DNA of 53,958 bases from Actinomycetota bacterium (GCA_011046085.1 DSBK01000015.1:1-53958); one strand, 5' to 3'; shown: positions 6,865 through 16,329, counted from the stretch's first letter. Translations and numbers: made by a program. Notes: a model not told the origin generated them from the sequence alone.

Positions 6865-7105
6865 AAAAATAAAGAATCTAAAAGAAGATAAAAAGCTAAA
6901 AATTATGCTATTCTTGTCAAAACACATACATATTTGGACAACAGAGATTTTATGGTTGAACTTATGGTTGAAAGTTATGATTTCGATTTTGAATTTGAAT
7001 TGATTGAAATGGCAAGGTATTTGGATACCGCTTTATGAATTAACATATTAGATAAAAGTTAAGATTTTTTTAAGATATATCGTGAAATTTTTAACAGGAG
7101 GAAGG

Positions 7106-8841
7106 ATGGATCACAAGAAAGGCAAGTTTCCTCTTTTCGAGTCGCTCAAAGCATCTGAAGGGGAGAAAGTTTCTGCCTTTTTAGTGTTTTACCGCTGGGC
7201 AAATTGGTTTTTGGCCTTAACACTTCTTTCTTTAGGAGCTGTCCCAAAAATTTCTTCCGCAAGGGCATGGTCTCTTATTGTTTTTGTATGTCTATACAAC
7301 ATCATCCTTGGAAGATACCACCCATATATTTATAAAAAGATTAAAAAACAGCCACTCTTTCTCGGCGTGGATTACCTGGTATGTTTCGGTCTCATTGCTT
7401 TAAGCGGCGGTTGGCGAAGTCCTTATTATCTCTACTCATTTAGCCCTCTTTTAATTGCTGCTCTTGTAGGTAAAGTTAAAGGTGGTTTCATGGGGGCATC
7501 TATTTCAGCCATTCTAAATCTTTCAGCGCTTGCCTTAAACGGATTTGTTCCTCAAAAAATGTTAGAGATGGGATTTGGCGACGATCTTGTAGCTGATCAA
7601 CTCAGCTACTTCTTAATCGGTATCTTTTTTACTTATCCCGCCATATTAATGAGGCGGCTGGACAAAAACAGAGCCATTTTAGAAACAACCAAGAAGAATT
7701 TAGAATTCCAAGTTGAGACATTAAAGTCCATTTATGTAATGGCGACGGCATTTACTTCAAAGTTTAAGGTCCAAGATGTTTTAAAGGAAGTTGTGGAGAG
7801 CGTAAGGAAAATAACTTCAGCAAATCAGGTGGGGGGCTGCCTTTACATCGAAGGAACTAACGGACTTTGTCTTGATTTATCGACCTTGGAGATTGTCGGC
7901 AAAAAGAATAAACGGGGTCAAAAAAGTGGGTGGGAAAAGAAGATAATCGGTGCAATTGAAGAATGCTCCGAAGACGTATTTCGTTGTCCAAAGCTATTGA
8001 ATAACAAAACGGGTAAAGAAGAATGGCTTATCTGTTTTCCCCTGGAAGCTCGAGATGAAAAGATAGGGATTTTAGTGCTTATAACTCAGAAGGTTTTTGA
8101 TGACAGAGATGAGATGGCGACGAAGATTATGGCAAGCTTTGGGACAATAGCTATAAAGAATATACGGCTGGTGGAAGAGAAACAGAAGATTATTTTGGTC
8201 GATGAACGCAAGCGCATCGCAAGAGATATGCATGACGGGGTCTCACAGGCGCTTTTTGGGATAAACATAAGTTTGGAAATTTGTAATGAACTTATATATA
8301 AAGATCCAGATGAAGTGGCCAAAACCCTTAAAGGGCTGCAAAAGGAAATTTCTCAGATTGCGAAAACGATGAGGGATTATATATATATGATTTACAGAAG
8401 GTTGATTTGGTTGAGGAGATAGAGTTGGGCGAAGCTTGTAAAAGGTGTGTCGAGCATTTTAACAAAAATTATCAAACCAGTATCATGTTTAATGTAATTG
8501 GAACAGAACAACTCATATCAAACGATGTTAAAAAGGCCATCTGTTATATTATGCGCGAGGCGCTTTACAACGTGATCAAACATGCGAAAGCGAGCTCTAC
8601 CAGCGTAAGTTTGCATTATGAGGATGATGCCGTTAAGCTAATTATTTGTGATGATGGGAAAGGTTTTGATGTGAGGGAAACTTTTACCAAAGCTGAGGAG
8701 GAAGGGAGTTTGGGCTTGTTCGGCATGAAAGACAAAGCGGAGAATTTAGGCGGTTCCTTGAAAATCGTTAGTGATGTTAAAAAGGGAACGAGAGTTGAGT
8801 TTGTCGCTTCGACTAAAGGAAACCCAAATGAAACAAGTTAA
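7106..8841 (+). pseudogene. Membrane sensor histidine kinase (TM helices-GAF-HisKA_3-HATPase) split by a 2-nt frameshift: 7106-8422 and 8407-8841
   Basis: ERKRIARDMHDGVSQ H-box in the first ORF; REALYNVIKHA, DDGKGF and GLFGM boxes in the second. Removing one AT from the (AT)5 at 8379-8388 fuses the frames (RDYIYDLQKVDLVEE). Confidence 0.85.
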
Positions 8842-9811: not shown

Positions 9812-10504
9812 ATGTATGTGGGAAATCTTAAGGCAGGAAATTCTGCGGACGAAATTTTTACAGAATTGGCCAATGCTCAAGAAAAAGAGAGAAAAAGAAT
9901 AGCTTTTGATATACATGATGGGCCCGCTCAATCTATCTCAAGCGCTCTTTTGCAAATTGGTATAATGGAAGAGCTTTTCGATGCGGATGGTTTAGAAGAA
10001 GAATTTATTGAATTAAAAAAAATTCTTAAGTCAATATTGGAAGAATTGCAAAATATAATTAATCAGCTTTATCCTCGCTCTCTAATGCCGGAAGGGCTCG
10101 TACCCAAAGTAAAATGTCACATCGAAGAATTTAAGGCAAGAACGAACATAAATGTTAATTTGAAGGTTATTGGAGAAGAACGTGAGTTAACTACCTCTGC
10201 GCAAATTGCGATTTTTCGGGTTATTCAGGAGGCGCTTACTAATGTTCATAAACATGCTGATGCTGACAGGGTGGATGTTGAGTTGCGTCTAAAAAGAAAA
10301 GAGATAGAGTGTTTTGTTGCTGATAACGGAAAGGGTTTTTTGATTGATGAGGCAATAAAGTTTTTGCCTGAAGCAGATTGTTTTGGTTTGATGGGGATGT
10401 ATGAAAGAGTGGGGCTTCTTGGCGGGATGCTAAACATAGTAAGTGAGCCTAACAAAGGAGCCAAGATTAAGATTAAAGTTCCAATTTGGGAACAGCGGGA
10501 TTGA
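9812..10504 (+). CDS. Cytoplasmic sensor-less DegS-like histidine kinase (HisKA_3 + HATPase)
   Basis: AQEKERKRIAFDIHDGPAQ, QEALTNVHKHA, DNGKGF and GLMGMYER. Only ~20 aa precede the H-box helix. Confidence 0.9.
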   Translation: MYVGNLKAGNSADEIFTELANAQEKERKRIAFDIHDGPAQSISSALLQIGIMEELFDADGLEEEFIELKKILKSILEELQNIINQLYPRSLMPEGLVPKVKCHIEEFKARTNINVNLKVIGEERELTTSAQIAIFRVIQEALTNVHKHADADRVDVELRLKRKEIECFVADNGKGFLIDEAIKFLPEADCFGLMGMYERVGLLGGMLNIVSEPNKGAKIKIKVPIWEQRD

Positions 10505-10516
10505 GGGGGAAAACAC

Positions 10517-11170
10517 GTGGATAAGATTAGAGTAGTTGTTGTCGATGATCACGCTCTCATGAGGGATGGTATAAAAAAGGCATTAGAAAGAAATTCTGAT
10601 ATCCATGTTGTGGGAGAGGCATCAACGGGCGAAAAAGCCATTAAGCTGATAGATTCTCTCGAAACCGATCTGGTTTTATTGGATTTGCGACTGCCCGATA
10701 TCGATGGTATCTCGGTTTTAAAAAAGCTATTGGTTAGCTTCCCATTTTTAAAGGTGATTATTCTTTCTGTTTTTGAGGATGAGAATCATGTTAAATCTGC
10801 CCTTAAAAATGGAGCAAGCGGTTATTTGACCAAGTCCATAGGTCCGAGAAAACTAATTGAAGCCGTGAGGCGCGCGGCAAACGGCCAAAGCCCATTTTCT
10901 TTGGAGGCAACGACAAGTCTTGTTTCATTTTTTCGACACAGTGATTGCGAATCCTCTTTGAGGAAGCTTACTTCCAGAGAATCGGAGGTATGGCAATTGA
11001 TTTCTTTGGGTGCAAGCAATGCCGAGATTTGCGAAAAACTTTTTATTTCTCAAGGTACGGTTAAATTTCACATCAGGAATATCTTCCACAAGCTGGGGGT
11101 CAAAAATCGCGTTGAAGCCGCCTCTTTGGCCCACCGTCATGAGCTTTTCGAATCTGAAGTCCTTCATTAA
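10517..11170 (+). CDS. NarL/LuxR-family response regulator
   Basis: VVDDHALMRDG, LLDLRLP, and the LTSRESEV...SNAEI...TVKFH HTH. Confidence 0.93.
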   Translation: MDKIRVVVVDDHALMRDGIKKALERNSDIHVVGEASTGEKAIKLIDSLETDLVLLDLRLPDIDGISVLKKLLVSFPFLKVIILSVFEDENHVKSALKNGASGYLTKSIGPRKLIEAVRRAANGQSPFSLEATTSLVSFFRHSDCESSLRKLTSRESEVWQLISLGASNAEICEKLFISQGTVKFHIRNIFHKLGVKNRVEAASLAHRHELFESEVLH

Positions 11171-11313
11171 CTTACCAGTTCATTATTCGTTGCTCATTGT
11201 TTACTCCATACCCTTCTCCTTTACCCTTATACTTTCCTTTCACTCATCCATTTGTTTTTCCTGAGGGCTGGCGACTGGCAGATGAAAGCTGAATTCCATG
11301 TTCCATATTCCCA

Positions 11314-11401
11314 GTCATTGCGAGCCCGAAGGGCGCGGCAATCTCTTGAGATTACTTCGCTATACCTGCCCTGCGTTCATCGAGGGGCTCCTCGTAATGA
11401 C
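11314..11401. mobile_element. REP/RPE-like palindromic miniature element, copy 2
   Basis: GTCATTGCGAG...GGCAATCTCTTGAGATTAC...CTCGTAATGAC. Confidence 0.75.
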
Positions 11402-11815: not shown

Positions 11816-11883
11816 TACCTATCCTTTCGGTCAGGTAAAAAACCATCCCAAAAGTCAGGTAAAAAACCATCCCCTGGGCTGAA
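11816..11883 (+). promoter_or_regulatory. 24-bp-period operator-like direct repeats
   Basis: GTCAGGTAAAAAACCATCCC exact at 11830 and 11854, with degenerate flanking units, upstream of TAAAAT and the receiver gene. Confidence 0.6.
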
Positions 11884-11950: not shown

Positions 11951-12346
11951 ATGCATTCCATAAGAGTTATGTTGGTCGATGACAACAAACGCTTTCAAAC
12001 TTTATTGAGCAGGTATCTTGATCTTCAGCAGGATATTGAAGTTGTTGGAAAGGCGAGCAATGGAAAGGAAGCAGTTTCAATGTTCGATGAGCTTTTGCCC
12101 GATGTGGTGCTTATGGATTTGGCAATGCCGGTTATGGATGGAGTAACAAGCATGCAAAAGATTAAAGAAGCTCATCCTGCGGCAAAAGTGGTGGTTCTAA
12201 CCGCTCACAACACCATTGATTACAAGGAGCAAAGCAAAGAGGCGGAGGCCGATGGTTACGTGCTAAAGAGCATGTCAAGCAGTGCGCTCATCTCCACCAT
12301 TAAGAAGGTGATATCACAGCCACCACACCAGATTTTGCCCGACTAG
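11951..12346 (+). CDS. Stand-alone receiver-domain response regulator (NarL-type REC, no output domain)
   Basis: VMLVDD, VLMDLAMP, VLTA and GYVLK; 131 aa. Confidence 0.9.
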   Translation: MHSIRVMLVDDNKRFQTLLSRYLDLQQDIEVVGKASNGKEAVSMFDELLPDVVLMDLAMPVMDGVTSMQKIKEAHPAAKVVVLTAHNTIDYKEQSKEAEADGYVLKSMSSSALISTIKKVISQPPHQILPD

Positions 12347-12635
12347 CTAGTCGGGAGTCTGTTAGTTGGGAGTGGGGAGCTAAAAACTGGAGACTGGAGA
12401 CTGAAAAAAGCTGGCAGCTGGAGACTGAAAGGCTGGCAGCTGAGTTTAGGGAGTCGAGAGGCGTGGCTGGGTTTGGCCAACCGGAGCCCGGTTAGGGCAA
12501 AAATGATTAAGGATCTGGTCGAATGCAGCTTACGTCAGGAAGGTCGGGGTAGCGTAGCGGTAACTTGCGATTAACCCGCGCAAATATGCGCTAATCAGCG
12601 CAAATCTGCGTTATTAATCTGCGAAAATCCGCGTC
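12347..12635. repeat. Heptamer-type and AATCTGCG-type short repeats
   Basis: Runs of CTGGAGA/CTGGCAG and of AAATCTGCG/AATCAGCG/AATCCGCG. Confidence 0.6.
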
Positions 12636-12656
12636 TAAGAAGGGAGGAAAAACCAA

Positions 12657-13154
12657 ATGAGAAGAAAGATAATGGTTAGCTTGCTCGTGATCGCCGTGAC
12701 CGCCGTTATGGTAGGAGGAGCGAGCCTGGCAATCTTCACCGATTCGGCCAGCAACACGGGAAATACCTTCGCCACGGGCACGGTTGATATCGCGCTCTCA
12801 CCTGCAAGCGCACTCGTCACCCACGGCAACATGGCTCCTGGTGATTCCGTCAGTGGCGACCTTACTGTGACAAATTCCGGCAGTCTGGAGCTCAGGTATG
12901 CCATGACCACCACTGGAGACGACGCTAGCACCTTAGATGAGCAGCTCGAGTGCACGATTAAGGACAGCTCAGATACTGTGCTTTACACGGGTCCTCTGTC
13001 GGGAGCTCAGCTTGGGGACAGGGTGCTTGATTCGGGGGATAGCGAGGTGCTCACGTTCATCGTCGAGCTGCCGCTTGATACCGACAACGATTACCAAGGA
13101 CAGAGTTGCACCGTGAGCTTTGACTTTGCCGCGGAGCAGACAGCTAACAACTAA
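12657..13154 (+). CDS. TasA/CalY (camelysin)-family protein with SipW-type signal peptide
   Basis: Signal ...VGGASLA/IFTDSASNTGNTFATGTVDI, plus NMAPGD, VTNSGSL and NDYQG. Confidence 0.85.
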   Translation: MRRKIMVSLLVIAVTAVMVGGASLAIFTDSASNTGNTFATGTVDIALSPASALVTHGNMAPGDSVSGDLTVTNSGSLELRYAMTTTGDDASTLDEQLECTIKDSSDTVLYTGPLSGAQLGDRVLDSGDSEVLTFIVELPLDTDNDYQGQSCTVSFDFAAEQTANN

Positions 13155-13225
13155 ATCGATGGGCGCCTAGCCCACCAGTGATGGACGAGTAACCCATCAC
13201 TTCTCTTATAAGAGAGGAGTGCTTT

Positions 13226-13837
13226 ATGAAAAACCGAATACTTGTTTCGGTGCTGGTAGTCACCACAACACTCGTCCTCGTCGGTGGAGCAACTTTTGCG
13301 CTGTTTACGGACTCGGCGTCGAATACGGGAAACTCCTTTGAAACTGGTACGGTAGTCATCACGGCGGAGAGAAACTTGGGAGAAGCGATACCCGGACCGA
13401 TGTTCTACACAACCGCCTTACAGGGTGCACCCCCAGCTACTGGTGGATTGTATCCCACGGGCGAGTACTATCCGGGTCAATCGTTTGCCCGGTATCTCAA
13501 CGTTAAAAACGAAGGAACGCTGAATGTCTATCTGTACCAGGTGGGAGCAACCGTAACCGATGCCACTCCTGGCGACGGTGTGGATGACACGGTGTTGGCA
13601 GGTGGGCTTAATGTTCGAATAGAGCAGGCCCTTTCGGGGACACTTCTTTACGACGGCACTTTGGCCGCTCTGACGGCGGGGCCCGTGAACACCGTAAATC
13701 TCCTCCCGATTGCAGTTGGGGGGACGCAGAATCTGAAATACACCGTCAGTATGCCCATCGATGCGGGCGACGTGTACCAGGGTAAAAGCATCATAGTTGA
13801 GTTCGTGGTGTATGCGAGACAACAGGCAAACATCTAG
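13226..13837 (+). CDS. TasA/CalY-family protein with SipW-type signal peptide
   Basis: ...VGGATFA/LFTDSASNTGNSFETGTV, plus YPGQ, VKNEGTL and DVYQG. Confidence 0.85.
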   Translation: MKNRILVSVLVVTTTLVLVGGATFALFTDSASNTGNSFETGTVVITAERNLGEAIPGPMFYTTALQGAPPATGGLYPTGEYYPGQSFARYLNVKNEGTLNVYLYQVGATVTDATPGDGVDDTVLAGGLNVRIEQALSGTLLYDGTLAALTAGPVNTVNLLPIAVGGTQNLKYTVSMPIDAGDVYQGKSIIVEFVVYARQQANI

Positions 13838-13875
13838 ATTCCTATGGTGTTTTGCCCAGAGCGAAGTACAAAACA

Positions 13876-13903
13876 GCGTGAGGGGTGTTAAGCCCCTCAC
13901 GCC
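13876..13903 (+). terminator. Hairpin after the two tasA-like genes
   Basis: Perfect 10-bp stem GCGTGAGGGG-TGTTAAG-CCCCTCACGC with a weak U-tract. Confidence 0.6.
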
Positions 13904-14020
13904 CGTCTTCATATCTTTTATATCTTTTTATATTTGTGATAAGTTAGCAGACAGGGCAAAGAAAAGAAGGGGAATGGGTAATGGGTGAAGGGGAAAGTTA
14001 AAGATAAGGAACTTTTCCCT

Positions 14021-14109
14021 TCATTGCGAGCGACTGAAAGGAGCGCGGCAATCTCATACTTTGTAATAAAAAGCAGATTGCTTCGGTTGTTATACTCCCT
14101 CGCAATGAC
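14021..14109. mobile_element. REP/RPE-like palindromic miniature element, copy 3
   Basis: TCATTGCGAG...GGCAATCTC...AGATTGCTTCG...CTCGCAATGAC. Confidence 0.75.
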
Positions 14110-14194
14110 CGTAAGTATGGAGTATGGTTTGTGGCTGATAGCTGGAAGCTGAGGACTGCCAGGTACTGGCCTGTATCAGGGAGGCTGGAGCAGA

Positions 14195-14770
14195 ATGATA
14201 AAAAAATTCTTTAAGTGGACAATGACAATTGGTTTAATTTTGGTGTTATTGCTGGCAGTTTTCTCCGTGTTTATGCAGGTAAGACCCTTTGAGAAAGCAC
14301 CTTGGATTAAGGGCTATAAGCCCTTGACGGTCTTGGGCGGAAGCATGGAGCCGGCAATTCATGTGGGGAGCGTCCTCTTTGTAAAGCCGATAGAGGCAGC
14401 CGATATTGAAGAAGGCGATATCATTACCTTCAAAACTCCGCAGGATTCAAAAGTTTTTGAAGACCATTCCAAGAGTTTAACCACCCACAGGGTAGTGGAT
14501 GTTGTTAATGAGGGCGGATCTTTGGGTTTTAAGACCATGGGTGATGCCAACGAGGGTCCTGATGGCTGGATTGTTCCGGCAGAAGATGTCCTTGGCGAAG
14601 CAAGTTTTAACGTTCCCTACGCTGGTTATTTCGTTAGCTTCGCCAGGACGAGAAACGGCTTTCTGTTTTTAATAATCCTGCCCGCGGCTCTCATAATAAT
14701 TGGCGAGATTAGAAACATCTTTAAGTGCGTAAAAGAGAACACGAAGCCAAAAGAGGTTTCTGAGGTGTAA
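14195..14770 (+). CDS. sipW: ER-type signal peptidase I (SipW, Ser-His dyad)
   Basis: VLGGSMEPAI, GDIITF, TTHRVV, KTMGDAN...D, and N- and C-terminal TM helices. Confidence 0.9.
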   Translation: MIKKFFKWTMTIGLILVLLLAVFSVFMQVRPFEKAPWIKGYKPLTVLGGSMEPAIHVGSVLFVKPIEAADIEEGDIITFKTPQDSKVFEDHSKSLTTHRVVDVVNEGGSLGFKTMGDANEGPDGWIVPAEDVLGEASFNVPYAGYFVSFARTRNGFLFLIILPAALIIIGEIRNIFKCVKENTKPKEVSEV

Positions 14771-14774
14771 TAAA

Positions 14775-15767
14775 ATGATTAAGAGAAAAATTATCTTACA
14801 TTTTATGTCTTTACTTGTACTGATTTCGCTGGTGAGTGGGGCAACGCATGCTCTTTTCACCGATATGGAGACCAACACGGGGAACACATTCACCACTGCT
14901 TGTTTTGACGACGCCTTTGTTTTATCCTCGGGAACATCCAAGGCGACCAGGACATCCATCGCTCCATCACCACCCAAAACATCCTTTCCCATCGCAAGTG
15001 TGGATAAAGATGGAAATCTCGCCCTTGATTTTGGTGAAGTTCCGTCGGGAAACTCCAACAATTCTCCCGATGTTTTCAGAATTAAAAGCATTTGGAGAGA
15101 CACTTTAACTGTGCAGGTTGAATTGTCCGATGAATTGAAACCGTTGTTTAAATACATAGAGGTTGGCAAAGGCGTAAGCTCCATTGCCATTGATTCAGGT
15201 GAGGAGGTGCAGGTGGCCGCCAAACTCAATGTTCCCAATGATGCGGTTCCAGGAGATTATAGAGGATACGTCATTGTGAGCGCCCATAACGGGTTCTTTA
15301 TGAAGAAAATCCCTGCTTTGCTTAGCGTAGTCGAACATCCTACTCCTCCAATTATTTTGGATGCCTCCAGCACAACCGAAACGGCTGATTTTACCACGGA
15401 GACCGTTGTAAGTGATGAAGCGGATACGGTTAAGGAAATACCGACAGAGGAAGAAGTAATCGAAACAAACACTCTACCTGTGAGCATAACCTCTCCAGGC
15501 GGTGGCGCAGAGCTTTGCGGCACCGTTAACATCATCACGAATGTTGAAAGTAGCTCGGCCACACACAGAAACATCAGGCATGTAGTTTTTTATATAGATG
15601 GAGAAGAGGTTGGAAAAATACAAGGAGACGGCCCTAACTCCACTTATATATATACCTGGGATACCACGGCGGCGCTTGGCGGTAAGCATACCTTAATGGT
15701 CGAAGCACATTATACGGCAGGTACCGAAGTTTCAGAGGAAATAGTGGTTATGGTCAACAATAGTTGA
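14775..15767 (+). CDS. SipW-substrate protein: TasA-like N-terminus, Thr/Glu linker, C-terminal bacterial Ig-like domain
   Basis: SGATHA/LFTDMETNTGNTFT; C-terminal VSITSP...VVFYIDG...YTWDTT...GKHTLMVEA. Confidence 0.75.
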   Translation: MIKRKIILHFMSLLVLISLVSGATHALFTDMETNTGNTFTTACFDDAFVLSSGTSKATRTSIAPSPPKTSFPIASVDKDGNLALDFGEVPSGNSNNSPDVFRIKSIWRDTLTVQVELSDELKPLFKYIEVGKGVSSIAIDSGEEVQVAAKLNVPNDAVPGDYRGYVIVSAHNGFFMKKIPALLSVVEHPTPPIILDASSTTETADFTTETVVSDEADTVKEIPTEEEVIETNTLPVSITSPGGGAELCGTVNIITNVESSSATHRNIRHVVFYIDGEEVGKIQGDGPNSTYIYTWDTTAALGGKHTLMVEAHYTAGTEVSEEIVVMVNNS

Positions 15768-15829: not shown

Positions 15830-15915
15830 GTCTTTACAAGGAGTTCTTCGACGAACTCAGGGCAGGCATAGCAAAGTAATCTAAAGATTGCCGCGCTCTT
15901 CGGGCTTACAATGAC
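15830..15915. mobile_element. REP/RPE-like palindromic element, copy 4 (inverted relative to copy 2)
   Basis: Aligns end to end with the reverse complement of 11314-11401, with about 12 mismatches and 2 gaps by eye. Confidence 0.75.
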
Positions 15916-16329
15916 CGGGAGTAAGGGCAAAGATGTACAGGTTAAGAGCTTAATTATTAAAGCTTATAGTTTTTAGCTAGGGGTTTGAGACTGATAGCTG
16001 GAGGCTGGTAGTTTACTAATCTGAAAGACCCACACCCTCACGACTAAAATTATTATATATTATTAAGATATGTTAAAAATTTCCCCCACCTTCTTATTAA
16101 TTAAAAGTACAGGATCAATCTCCACCTTTTGTTCTCAAAATAAATTAATGATATCTTTCAGTAACTGGCTATTTTGTTCTGACACGCAGCGCTTTATTTG
16201 TCAAAGACCTCCCGTTTTTATGTATTGCCACTTAAAGAAAGAACCTTAATTTTCTTATACGAGTCCTTCTTTTTGTTTTTTTGGAATCTGCAGCCAACAA
16301 ATTATTTATGAAATTTTATGGAAAAAAGT

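Follow-up and report, generated by a model that had tools for sequence, protein, structure and literature searches.

The characterised system that is closest to the locus described here is the tapA-sipW-tasA locus of Bacillus subtilis (PDB 8AUR, 5OF1), for which the portion of PMC10151520 that we draw upon states that TapA donates its N-terminus to TasA and that, TapA having a complete Ig fold, a role for it in the filament beyond initiation is unlikely. For the archaeal bundling pili AbpA/AbpB, it has been suggested that a neighbouring, larger protein starts the filament and serves as adhesin, and the presence of TasA homologues in Actinobacteriota has already been reported (both in the sections of PMC9245690 cited here). 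In a preprint on the AbpX-type loci (bioRxiv 10.64898/2026.01.04.697558), the parts of which that concern us describe loci that encode a peptidase, histidine kinases and Spo0A-like regulators besides the subunits, both major and minor, and a tip protein, an acidic subunit whose residue 2 is aromatic and whose residue 4 is acidic is tied to calcium-assisted strand donation, and Actinomycetota sequences are placed in the central TasA cluster. The present work concerns a locus from Actinomycetota bacterium (GCA_011046085.1 DSBK01000015.1:1-53958; this whole stretch of 53,958 nucleotides is referred to below as the window), in which the gene for a SipW-like signal peptidase is flanked, between positions 11951 and 15767, by genes for three proteins with SipW-type leaders, designated T1, T2 and T3. 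Based upon analogy with the above systems and upon structure models, this locus is probably an operon for an extracellular fibre or matrix of the TasA superfamily, with its own control elements and with shaft genes that behave as a cassette.

An earlier note on this DNA had proposed a three-subunit fibre comprised of two short shaft proteins and one minor Ig-tipped subunit, and its author knew of no characterised example in a host of this kind. The literature that we have searched likewise contains no experimentally characterised TasA-type fibre from an actinobacterium, and published lists of homologues may include this lineage. The novelty was nevertheless overstated, since homologues as well as the general locus design are in print and the family PF12389 (Peptidase_M73), to which TasA-like proteins are assigned, is present in 45 of the 300 genomes sampled from the phylum.

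The SipW-Type Peptidase and its Cognate Leaders

Open reading frame (ORF) calling identified seven + strand genes in the interval 9.8-15.8 kb, from a histidine kinase to T3. The sixth of these (14195-14770, + strand) encodes a SipW-like signal peptidase I of the archaeal or endoplasmic reticulum (ER) type, 191 aa in length, which scored 115.3 bits against TIGR02228, the NCBIfam model for archaeal-type signal peptidase I (cut-off 51.85), and 26.9 bits against Pfam Peptidase_S26. This protein has two hydrophobic segments and contains the motifs GGS50MEP, TTH98R and GD117AN, which we take to be catalytic.

The leaders of T1, T2, and T3 were compared with TIGR04088, the model for SipW-dependent leaders, for which the cut-off is 19 bits. 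By hmmscan the scores were 20.1, 23.0, and 18.6, respectively, and the leader of T3 reached 23.0 in a six-frame search of the genome. The three leaders end in GGASLA, GGATFA, and SGATHA, i.e. in an A-x-A site, and the sequences that follow them, IFTDSASNTGNTF in T1, LFTDSASNTGNSF in T2 and LFTDMETNTGNTF in T3, all fit the pattern [I/L]FTD...TGN[T/S]F. In a search of the whole genome (1.50 Mb in 114 contigs, 96.7% complete), matches to both PF12389 and TIGR04088 were confined to T1, T2, and T3, and SipW was the sole TIGR02228 match above the cut-off. As the only leaders of this kind in the genome and the only such peptidase are adjacent, the clustering of these genes is not due to chance. The sequence motifs, TIGR04088 and TIGR02228 are thus in agreement on three SipW-type leaders flanking an ER-type peptidase, as had been noticed at the outset, and in the hidden Markov model searches for the Peptidase_M73/TasA family and for the SipW-dependent signal T1 and T2 passed both cut-offs.

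The original observation that TapA and sortase are lacking at this locus also holds. The best score in the genome for the TapA/YqxM model TIGR04087 was 12 bits (E 0.096), compared to a cut-off of 80, and this match involved only the leader of T3. T1-T3 lack an LPxTG motif, and the locus lacks a sortase; the genome has a single sortase match, which is located on another contig (C64).

Relationship of T1 and T2 to TasA and Predicted Assembly

T1 (12657-13154, + strand; 165 aa), the predicted shaft subunit, and T2 (13226-13837, + strand; 203 aa) scored 57.1 and 31.1 bits, respectively, against PF12389 (cut-off 22.5 bits), and the two proteins are 35% identical to each other across their full length. 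Among 803 scored candidates, 539 relatives of T1 were detected at E<=0.001, the best of which was 57% identical over the full length, and identity to the closest relatives in the mature part was 57-65%. Names given to some of these relatives are 'spore coat-associated protein N' and 'SipW-like signal peptide', and a Chloroflexota metagenome-assembled genome (MAG) is the source of one of them. A metagenome scan with the single protein revealed seven loci, all of them distant (27-43% identity) and short. When a T1 profile derived from 64 sequences was compared with the PDB, it matched B. subtilis TasA in the entries 5of1_A (E 1.2e-12) and 8aur_A (E 1.7e-12).

The mature form of T1 is predicted to consist of 140 aa, with an isoelectric point (pI) of 4.05, an Asp plus Glu content of 15.7% and the N-terminus I-F-T-D, in which F is residue 2 and D residue 4; that of T2 is predicted to consist of 178 aa. 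In the AlphaFold model of mature T1 (predicted local distance difference test, pLDDT, 82.9; predicted template modelling score, pTM, 0.74), a beta-sandwich follows 19 unstructured N-terminal residues. The best Foldseek match for this model was the TasA fibre 8aur_A (E 2.5e-5; query-normalised TM-score, TMq, 0.58), and the second best was 7ueg_A, the bundling pilus of Pyrobaculum (E 3.5e-4, TMq 0.52; 13% identity), with FimG and the Sulfolobus thread further down the list.

Multimer prediction, which had been suggested as a check upon the fibre proposal, was carried out for mature T1 and placed the N-terminal strand in the neighbouring subunit. For three copies, the interface score ipSAE was 0.84, 0.81, and 0.81 (median 0.81), compared to 0.00 for the best of three controls, and the runs showed a contact agreement of >=98% with partner pLDDT of >=91. 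In the calibration of ipSAE, the mark was attained for 20 out of 30 solved pairs of one chain and for one out of 23 solved single chains; this calibration fits the T1 trimer only roughly, as the latter involves three copies and an alignment of its own. Residues 1-18 of a given copy are paired in the model with two segments of its neighbour, residues 18-22 and the C-terminal strand 121-136, and the predicted geometry is that of donor-strand complementation. Of the 45 conserved positions of T1, 24 fall within the modelled interface, compared to 69 of all 140 positions, so that conserved residues show no enrichment at the interface by this hand count. Because solved relatives exist, we count the trimer model only as likeness to these fibres, for which it provides support and not proof.

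T3 and the SipW-T3 Fusions

The gene for T3 (14775-15767, + strand; 330 aa) starts 4 nt past the stop codon of sipW. Its product has a modular structure, in which the SipW-type leader and the strand motif are followed by a PapD/Ig-like beta-sandwich (the body, approximately residues 44-197) that a linker rich in Thr and Glu joins to a Big_7 Ig domain (residues 236-309, 38.9 bits). In a structure model, the body was predicted with pLDDT >90 (residues ~21-170), the linker poorly and Big_7 with middling scores; whole-model Foldseek searches yielded only generic two-domain matches with a root-mean-square deviation of ~20. By BLAST, the mature N-terminus (LFTDMETNTGNTF...) was the only part of T3 that aligned with T1 and T2, where it matches their donor strand. 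An hhalign comparison of the T3 and T1 profiles gave a probability of 96.6% (E 4.8e-10) over 146 columns, the leader included.

Only six relatives of similar length to T3 were found in a search of 5.8 billion proteins. These relatives show that T3 is built from a leader and strand motif, a body or a Cys/Asp-rich stretch, and an optional linker with Big_7. With the body alone, 116 matches at E<=0.001, self included, were obtained among 1.84 billion representatives; many of these are ~190 aa in length, i.e. leader plus domain, and some carry the domain two to four times. In Pfam searches, five short members of this body family gave no match above the cut-offs; only weak matches to NEW3, GH123_N, and WxLIP-type Ig-like domains were obtained.

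The T3 counterpart in a genome of the same family (G001; L018 8993-9667) retains the leader, the strand motif and Big_7. In it, the Ig-like body is replaced by an acidic Cys/Asp-rich stretch of ~70 residues with CDC-type repeats, which could be a metal-binding variant, and this form of T3 is also seen in two metagenome proteins (P0124, P0125).

Candidates for fusion proteins were selected from the 116 body homologues as those of 379-474 aa in which the domain starts after residue 220. All seven candidates (P0131, P0133, P0134, P0136, P0144, P0146, P0156) proved to be in-frame fusions of a SipW-type peptidase, a leader and a T3-type domain, with the peptidase part N-terminal (TIGR02228 93-116 bits in 7/7); as the peptidase scan covered these seven of the 116 homologues, the number of fusions is at least seven. 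In the four fusions that were inspected, the leader follows the second membrane segment of the peptidase, and in each of them an A-x-A site is followed by an aromatic residue. Two of the seven are named, both being from Actinomycetota MAGs. As peptidase and T3-type protein are joined in natural fusions, the two most likely work together, and the sequence arrangement suggests that the fusions may process themselves. The parts of the AbpX preprint cited here report another fusion, of DUF5305 with a peptidase (bioRxiv 10.64898/2026.01.04.697558). A SipW-T3 fusion was not met in the TasA/AbpX literature compared, in which no search aimed at fusions was made.

Proposed Function and its Main Alternative

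Under the proposal that we favour, T1, T2, and T3 would be exported by Sec and cut after A-x-A by the SipW-like peptidase, which would leave a free N-terminus starting with [I/L]-F-T-D. The freed strand of T1 or T2 would then enter the open beta-sandwich of the next subunit to form a chain of acidic subunits. T3 would present the same strand motif on a different and complete Ig-like body, and most likely would give its strand to the first subunit of the shaft, acting not as a repeating subunit but as nucleator and as anchor or adhesin, the task of TapA in Bacillus. We favour this role for T3 over that of a simple tip, because the combination of a donor-strand-like N-terminus with a complete Ig body matches the situation in TapA. 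A hairpin after T2 would keep transcripts for T1 and T2 in excess over those for sipW and T3, expression would be governed by a histidine kinase and a LuxR-type regulator together with a receiver-only protein and the conserved leader upstream of T1, and the shaft genes would constitute a replaceable cassette between conserved flanks.

A number of observations weigh against this proposal. T1 and T2 scored 42.7 and 15.9 bits, respectively, with the TasA equivalog model NF046066 (cut-off 450), and judged from the profile scores they are members of the TasA family but not orthologues of TasA; similarly, SipW falls below the cut-off of the Bacillus SipW equivalog NF046067 (124.5 bits vs 190). The TM-scores of T1 are modest (0.52-0.58), with generic beta-sandwiches close behind in the list, and the high score of the trimer, for which the calibration is only approximate, may reflect the memory that the model has of solved TasA and pilus fibres. 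At the locus no cell-wall anchor was identified. The U-tract of the hairpin after T2 is interrupted, and a terminator-like flag was obtained on the - strand only. T3 scored 14.9 bits against PF12389, below the cut-off and in the leader region only, and in VIA-align comparisons PapD/ASH/MSP-like, WxLIP, and GH123 N-domain sandwiches (Z 10-11) preceded the bundling pilus 7ueg_A, which was at rank 29 (Z 8.4). Hence, of the 'minor Ig-tipped subunit' that T3 had been taken for, the leader and the Big_7 end remain, whereas a TasA fold is not clearly indicated, given the score below the Pfam cut-off and the generic PapD/Ig matches. T3 is therefore not clearly a TasA-fold subunit and its role as a 'tip' is a guess; a TapA-like nucleator or anchor would fit equally well. 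Similarly, what survives of the original three-subunit fibre is a fibre with two short shaft proteins, in accordance with the TasA-family membership of T1 and T2 and the donor-strand model for T1, and with T3 as a doubtful third subunit.

The foremost rival explanation, which we consider unlikely, is that T1-T3 are secreted or surface proteins that are processed by SipW and do not polymerise, for example matrix or adhesion proteins that are monomeric or form small oligomers, or proteins of the cell envelope, and that the motif they share serves only for recognition by the peptidase. Although the conserved motif overlaps the cleavage site and its conservation alone cannot separate a cleavage signal from a donor strand, the conservation extends for ~18 residues past the cut site, which is more than a peptidase needs. 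The body of T3, being a complete Ig-like sandwich with generic matches, would be in keeping with such proteins, and structure models often score high for families with solved complexes. However, the N-terminus of T1, which is disordered in the monomer model, fills the 18-22/121-136 groove in the trimer, and the nearest solved relatives of T1 are fibre subunits.

Conservation and Evolution of the Block

Of 40 relatives belonging to the same class, 11 were found to carry a T1-like gene, among them one of the five members of the same family. The gene order REC-T1-T2-sipW-T3, where REC denotes the receiver-only gene, recurs in G001 and in a genome from another family (G016), with the receiver-only gene at the same position in both. 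The order T1-T2-sipW-T3 is also found in G027. In G006, three receiver genes and two T1-like genes precede sipW, and a Big_7 protein is encoded farther on. The comparison of these four genomes thus indicates that the core locus occurs across at least four families of the class. In G001, the whole block of seven genes, which includes the histidine kinase (HK) and the response regulator (RR), is present at the same site, with HK, RR, REC, and SipW 73-79% identical, and in G016 the locus likewise lies a few kb upstream of rsmH. In G004, which belongs to the same genus as G001, the flanks are collinear and the seven-gene block is missing between a small zinc-ribbon gene and mraZ. RR, which is 74% identical to its orthologue in G001, was not found at E<=1e-40 in four of the five same-family genomes. 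In our reading, the class has long possessed the block of seven genes as an accessory locus and has often lost it.

The individual proteins differ greatly in their degree of conservation. SipW is 79% identical to its counterparts in both G001 and G016, and for T3 the corresponding values are 62% and 59%; for scale, those for RsmH are 72% and 65%. REC shows 75% identity to G001 and 37% to G016, T1 33% and 41%, and T2 42% and 36%. At the DNA level, identity within the bodies of T1 and T2 is 35-55%, i.e. they are essentially unalignable, whereas the region upstream of T1, the signal-peptide region of T1, the hairpin after T2 and sipW show 75-90% identity to one or both of these genomes. The G+C content at third codon positions (GC3) is 0.651 in T1, 0.583 in T2, 0.515 in REC, 0.505 in sipW, and 0.447 in T3, all of which exceed the maximum of 0.421 seen in 46 other genes of the window (mean 0.354, sd 0.037); HK and RR, with 0.316 and 0.404, have the native composition. 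The simplest reading of these sequence comparisons is that the shaft genes were replaced by recombination between conserved flanks; no donor was identified.

The same observations allow the locus to be centred differently, although we think this rather unlikely. The conserved core would then be the SipW-T3 pair, with T3 representing an undescribed leader-bearing PapD/Ig-like family, some members of which, in certain Actinomycetota, are fused to their own peptidase and would cut themselves free; T3 would nucleate and anchor the fibre, and the shaft would be a cassette that is swapped by recombination between the signal-peptide region with its conserved, possibly structured RNA leader and the hairpin. 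If this were true, it would amount to surface variation comparable to the replacement of pilin or flagellin.

Additionally, inverted repeats are present around these genes. The left arm (11303-11401; 99 nt), which is 83% complementary to the right arm (15830-15926), brackets REC-T3 together with it, and a third copy of the palindromic repeat (13967-14127) lies in the T2-sipW spacer and is absent from this spacer in G016 and G001. As both arms are absent from the G001 and G016 loci and the core of the repeat is dispersed on at least eight other contigs, the sequence comparison indicates that these repeats are later insertions in this lineage and not the ends of a shared mobile element.

With regard to origin, it is therefore quite improbable that the five genes REC-T3 represent a recent mobile island bounded by the 99-nt inverted repeats. 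This explanation would account for the elevated GC3 of all five genes (0.447-0.651), for the repeats that bracket exactly REC-T3 and for the absence of the block from this site in G004. However, the unit that is present or absent consists of seven genes and includes the HK-RR pair of native composition; the block is at the same site in G001 with the high identities given above, and near rsmH also in G016; and no integrase or transposase was found among the ORFs. The pattern is in keeping with losses of an old accessory locus in which only the bodies of T1-T2 were replaced. A repeat-bounded mobile island was accordingly rejected as a candidate, since the repeats are dispersed and are missing from the G001 and G016 loci. 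It is barely credible that T1 and T2 are secreted metalloproteases of the camelysin type (Peptidase_M73), as the Pfam family name and the matches above its cut-off might suggest, for HExxH is found in neither, mature T1 has one His and T2 none, and the solved member of this family is a fibre subunit (PMC9674648; and in the portion of PMC10151520 cited).

Regulatory Genes and Elements

The block of seven genes is headed by a sensor-less histidine kinase (HK; 9812-10504, + strand; Pfam HisKA_3 and HATPase_c), which is followed by a LuxR/NarL-type response regulator (RR; 10517-11170, + strand; Response_reg and GerE) and by REC (11951-12346, + strand; 131 aa), a stand-alone CheY/Spo0F-like receiver without an output domain (PF00072, 96.5 bits). 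A perfect tandem direct repeat of 20 nt with a 24-nt period (11830-11873, + strand) precedes REC by ~80 nt and is conserved in G001; it is a possible operator for a response regulator.

The stem-loop after T2 (13875-13903, + strand) has an 11-bp stem with 8 G-C pairs. For a stretch of 103 nt containing it, the folding z-score was -5.3, and none of 200 shuffled sequences folded as well. The stem is identical in G016, and in G001 three pairs have changed to G.U or U.G, for which pairing is possible on the + strand only. The loop has a different sequence in each of the three genomes, and an AT-rich sequence of ~50 nt past the hairpin (to ~13955) is also conserved. This pattern of conservation fits an RNA element in the sense transcript. 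The hairpin after T2 that had been noted initially can thus be regarded as real, with its low z-score and its conservation in two other genomes, and it separates T1-T2 from sipW-T3. It is likely a partial terminator or RNA-stability element, perhaps combined with an internal promoter, and it is reasonable to suppose that it would raise the ratio of T1/T2 to sipW/T3.

T1 is preceded by a non-coding leader of ~125 nt (12448-12572, + strand) that is 85-86% identical in G001 and G016, and this leader was found in two of 47 other genomes of the class. A helix of 18 pairs is predicted within it, in which 53 of 54 cells are paired; nine pairs are variable, eight of them through a change on one side only and one through changes on both. 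The folding z-score for the single sequence was -1.4. In the covariation analysis based upon three sequences the observed value was reached by 355 of 500 shuffles, so that this control is uninformative. No Rfam family matched the leader at E<=1 except for a chance match to Flavi_CRE (E 0.96), and the Rfam search upstream of T1 revealed no cyclic di-GMP riboswitch or other known riboswitch. The conservation seen in three sequences is suggestive of a candidate structured cis-regulatory RNA or a region for the binding of a regulator.

The spacer between REC and T1 also contains tandem repeats, viz. GGAGACT-type heptamers at 12382-12429 and GCG-AAATCT-type units at 12575-12650, of which there are more copies in G001 and none at that place in G016.

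Host and Neighbouring Genes

The closest named FtsZ was that of Ca. Oleimmundimicrobium sp. (87% identical), a genus that the NCBI taxonomy places in the class Ca. Aquicultoria of the Actinomycetota. Further named FtsZ matches came from MAGs labelled Actinomycetota, Ca. Aquicultorales, and Coriobacteriia, and the related genomes bear the labels Actinomycetes (G001, same family) and Actinomycetota (G016, same class but another family). The FtsZ relatives and the labels of the same-family and same-class genomes are thus in agreement, and by these sequence-based assignments the host is an early-branching (basal) actinobacterium and not a member of the Bacillota. The deep-branching actinobacterial host that had been proposed is in this way supported, and the case that would have spoken against the proposal, a Bacillota species with an ordinary tasA locus, is not what the taxonomy of FtsZ indicates. 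WhiB (PF02467) was not found in the 96.7%-complete genome, whereas a Corynebacterium genome that served as a control gave a match. We do not hold this negative result against the assignment, because the relatives of FtsZ and the labels of related genomes agree on Actinomycetota; the absence of WhiB in the genome search may interest those studying this basal class.

Downstream of T3 are mraZ and rsmH followed by further ORFs on the same strand. The run of ORFs from mraZ onward is taken for the cell-division cluster, in which MraZ, RsmH, and FtsZ were identified by homology and the other names are assumed.

Upstream of the block, at 7082-8841 of the window, a histidine kinase is seemingly split into two overlapping ORFs (7082-8422, 446 aa; 8407-8841, 144 aa), both of which are matched (64% and 54% identity, respectively) by a single gene of 581 aa in G001. 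A frameshift, an error of the assembly or a genuine split may account for this. In G016, between two response-regulator genes upstream of the locus (L017 10116-10841, - strand), there is a gene for an acidic, Cys-rich secreted protein of 241 aa, which ends in LPYTG and a hydrophobic tail in the manner of a sortase substrate and has no counterpart in the window.

Comparison with Known Systems

Of the systems compared, chaperone-usher pili (Fim/Pap) share with this locus the donor-strand principle, and FimG is among the matches of T1 and PapD-like domains are among those of T3. The locus, however, contains no usher, periplasmic chaperone or outer membrane system, and the likeness is one of fold and principle only. 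The locus also differs from those for the sortase-assembled pili of Gram-positive bacteria in that LPxTG is absent from T1-T3 and a pilus sortase from the locus. The classical pili of actinobacteria are built by sortases.

The archaeal bundling pili AbpA/AbpB of Pyrobaculum calidifontis (7UEG) combine a jelly roll with a donated N-terminal strand, as in the model of T1, but, unlike the present case, no dedicated peptidase is described for their locus in the sections of PMC9245690 cited. Among described locus designs, the closest is the one in the AbpX preprint (bioRxiv 10.64898/2026.01.04.697558), with its major, minor, and tip subunits, peptidase, and regulators. Going by the description in its cited parts, the small, very acidic subunit of these loci (AbpX of Pyrodictium abyssi and bacterial homologues; pI ~4, ~15% Asp/Glu, aromatic-2 and acidic-4) resembles T1. 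The peptidases linked to AbpX are described there as having ten membrane helices and often a DUF5305 partner, in contrast to the peptidase of 191 aa and two hydrophobic segments found here, and no Pfam match to DUF5305 was observed among the proteins of this locus. The bacterial abpX loci of the same source hold SLH or LPXTG anchors and sortases, none of which is present in this locus.

The locus nonetheless bears its closest likeness to tapA-sipW-tasA of B. subtilis. In both, a dedicated SipW-type peptidase with two helices is encoded next to its substrates, the subunits are members of PF12389, and assembly by donor strand is shared, here as a prediction. T3 resembles TapA in being a minor protein that has a leader and a complete Ig-like body and whose gene adjoins sipW; it is, however, not homologous to TapA, as judged from TIGR04087 (12 vs 80 bits), and carries Big_7. 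T1 and T2, with 140 and 178 aa when mature, are much shorter than TasA (residues 28-261 in the cited portion of PMC10151520), and there are two shaft paralogues. In the order of genes the subunits come first here, followed by sipW and then by the minor protein, and the host is a basal actinobacterium. The B. subtilis counterpart is regulated by SinR, whereas the gene content here points to regulation by two-component genes and a receiver-only protein.

As the general design is already in print, what is gained from this locus is breadth and not a new principle. The locus is compact and free of sortase, and with two short shaft proteins, a peptidase, and a minor protein it should be simple to express and image; its source is a basal, anaerobic class of actinobacteria with small genomes. 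It could reveal how a fibre is started and anchored without TapA, and the SipW-T3 fusions offer a simple test of dedicated processing. Three features go beyond the literature compared, namely the T3 family including its fusions to a peptidase, the shaft genes that resemble a cassette, and the conserved leader of T1.

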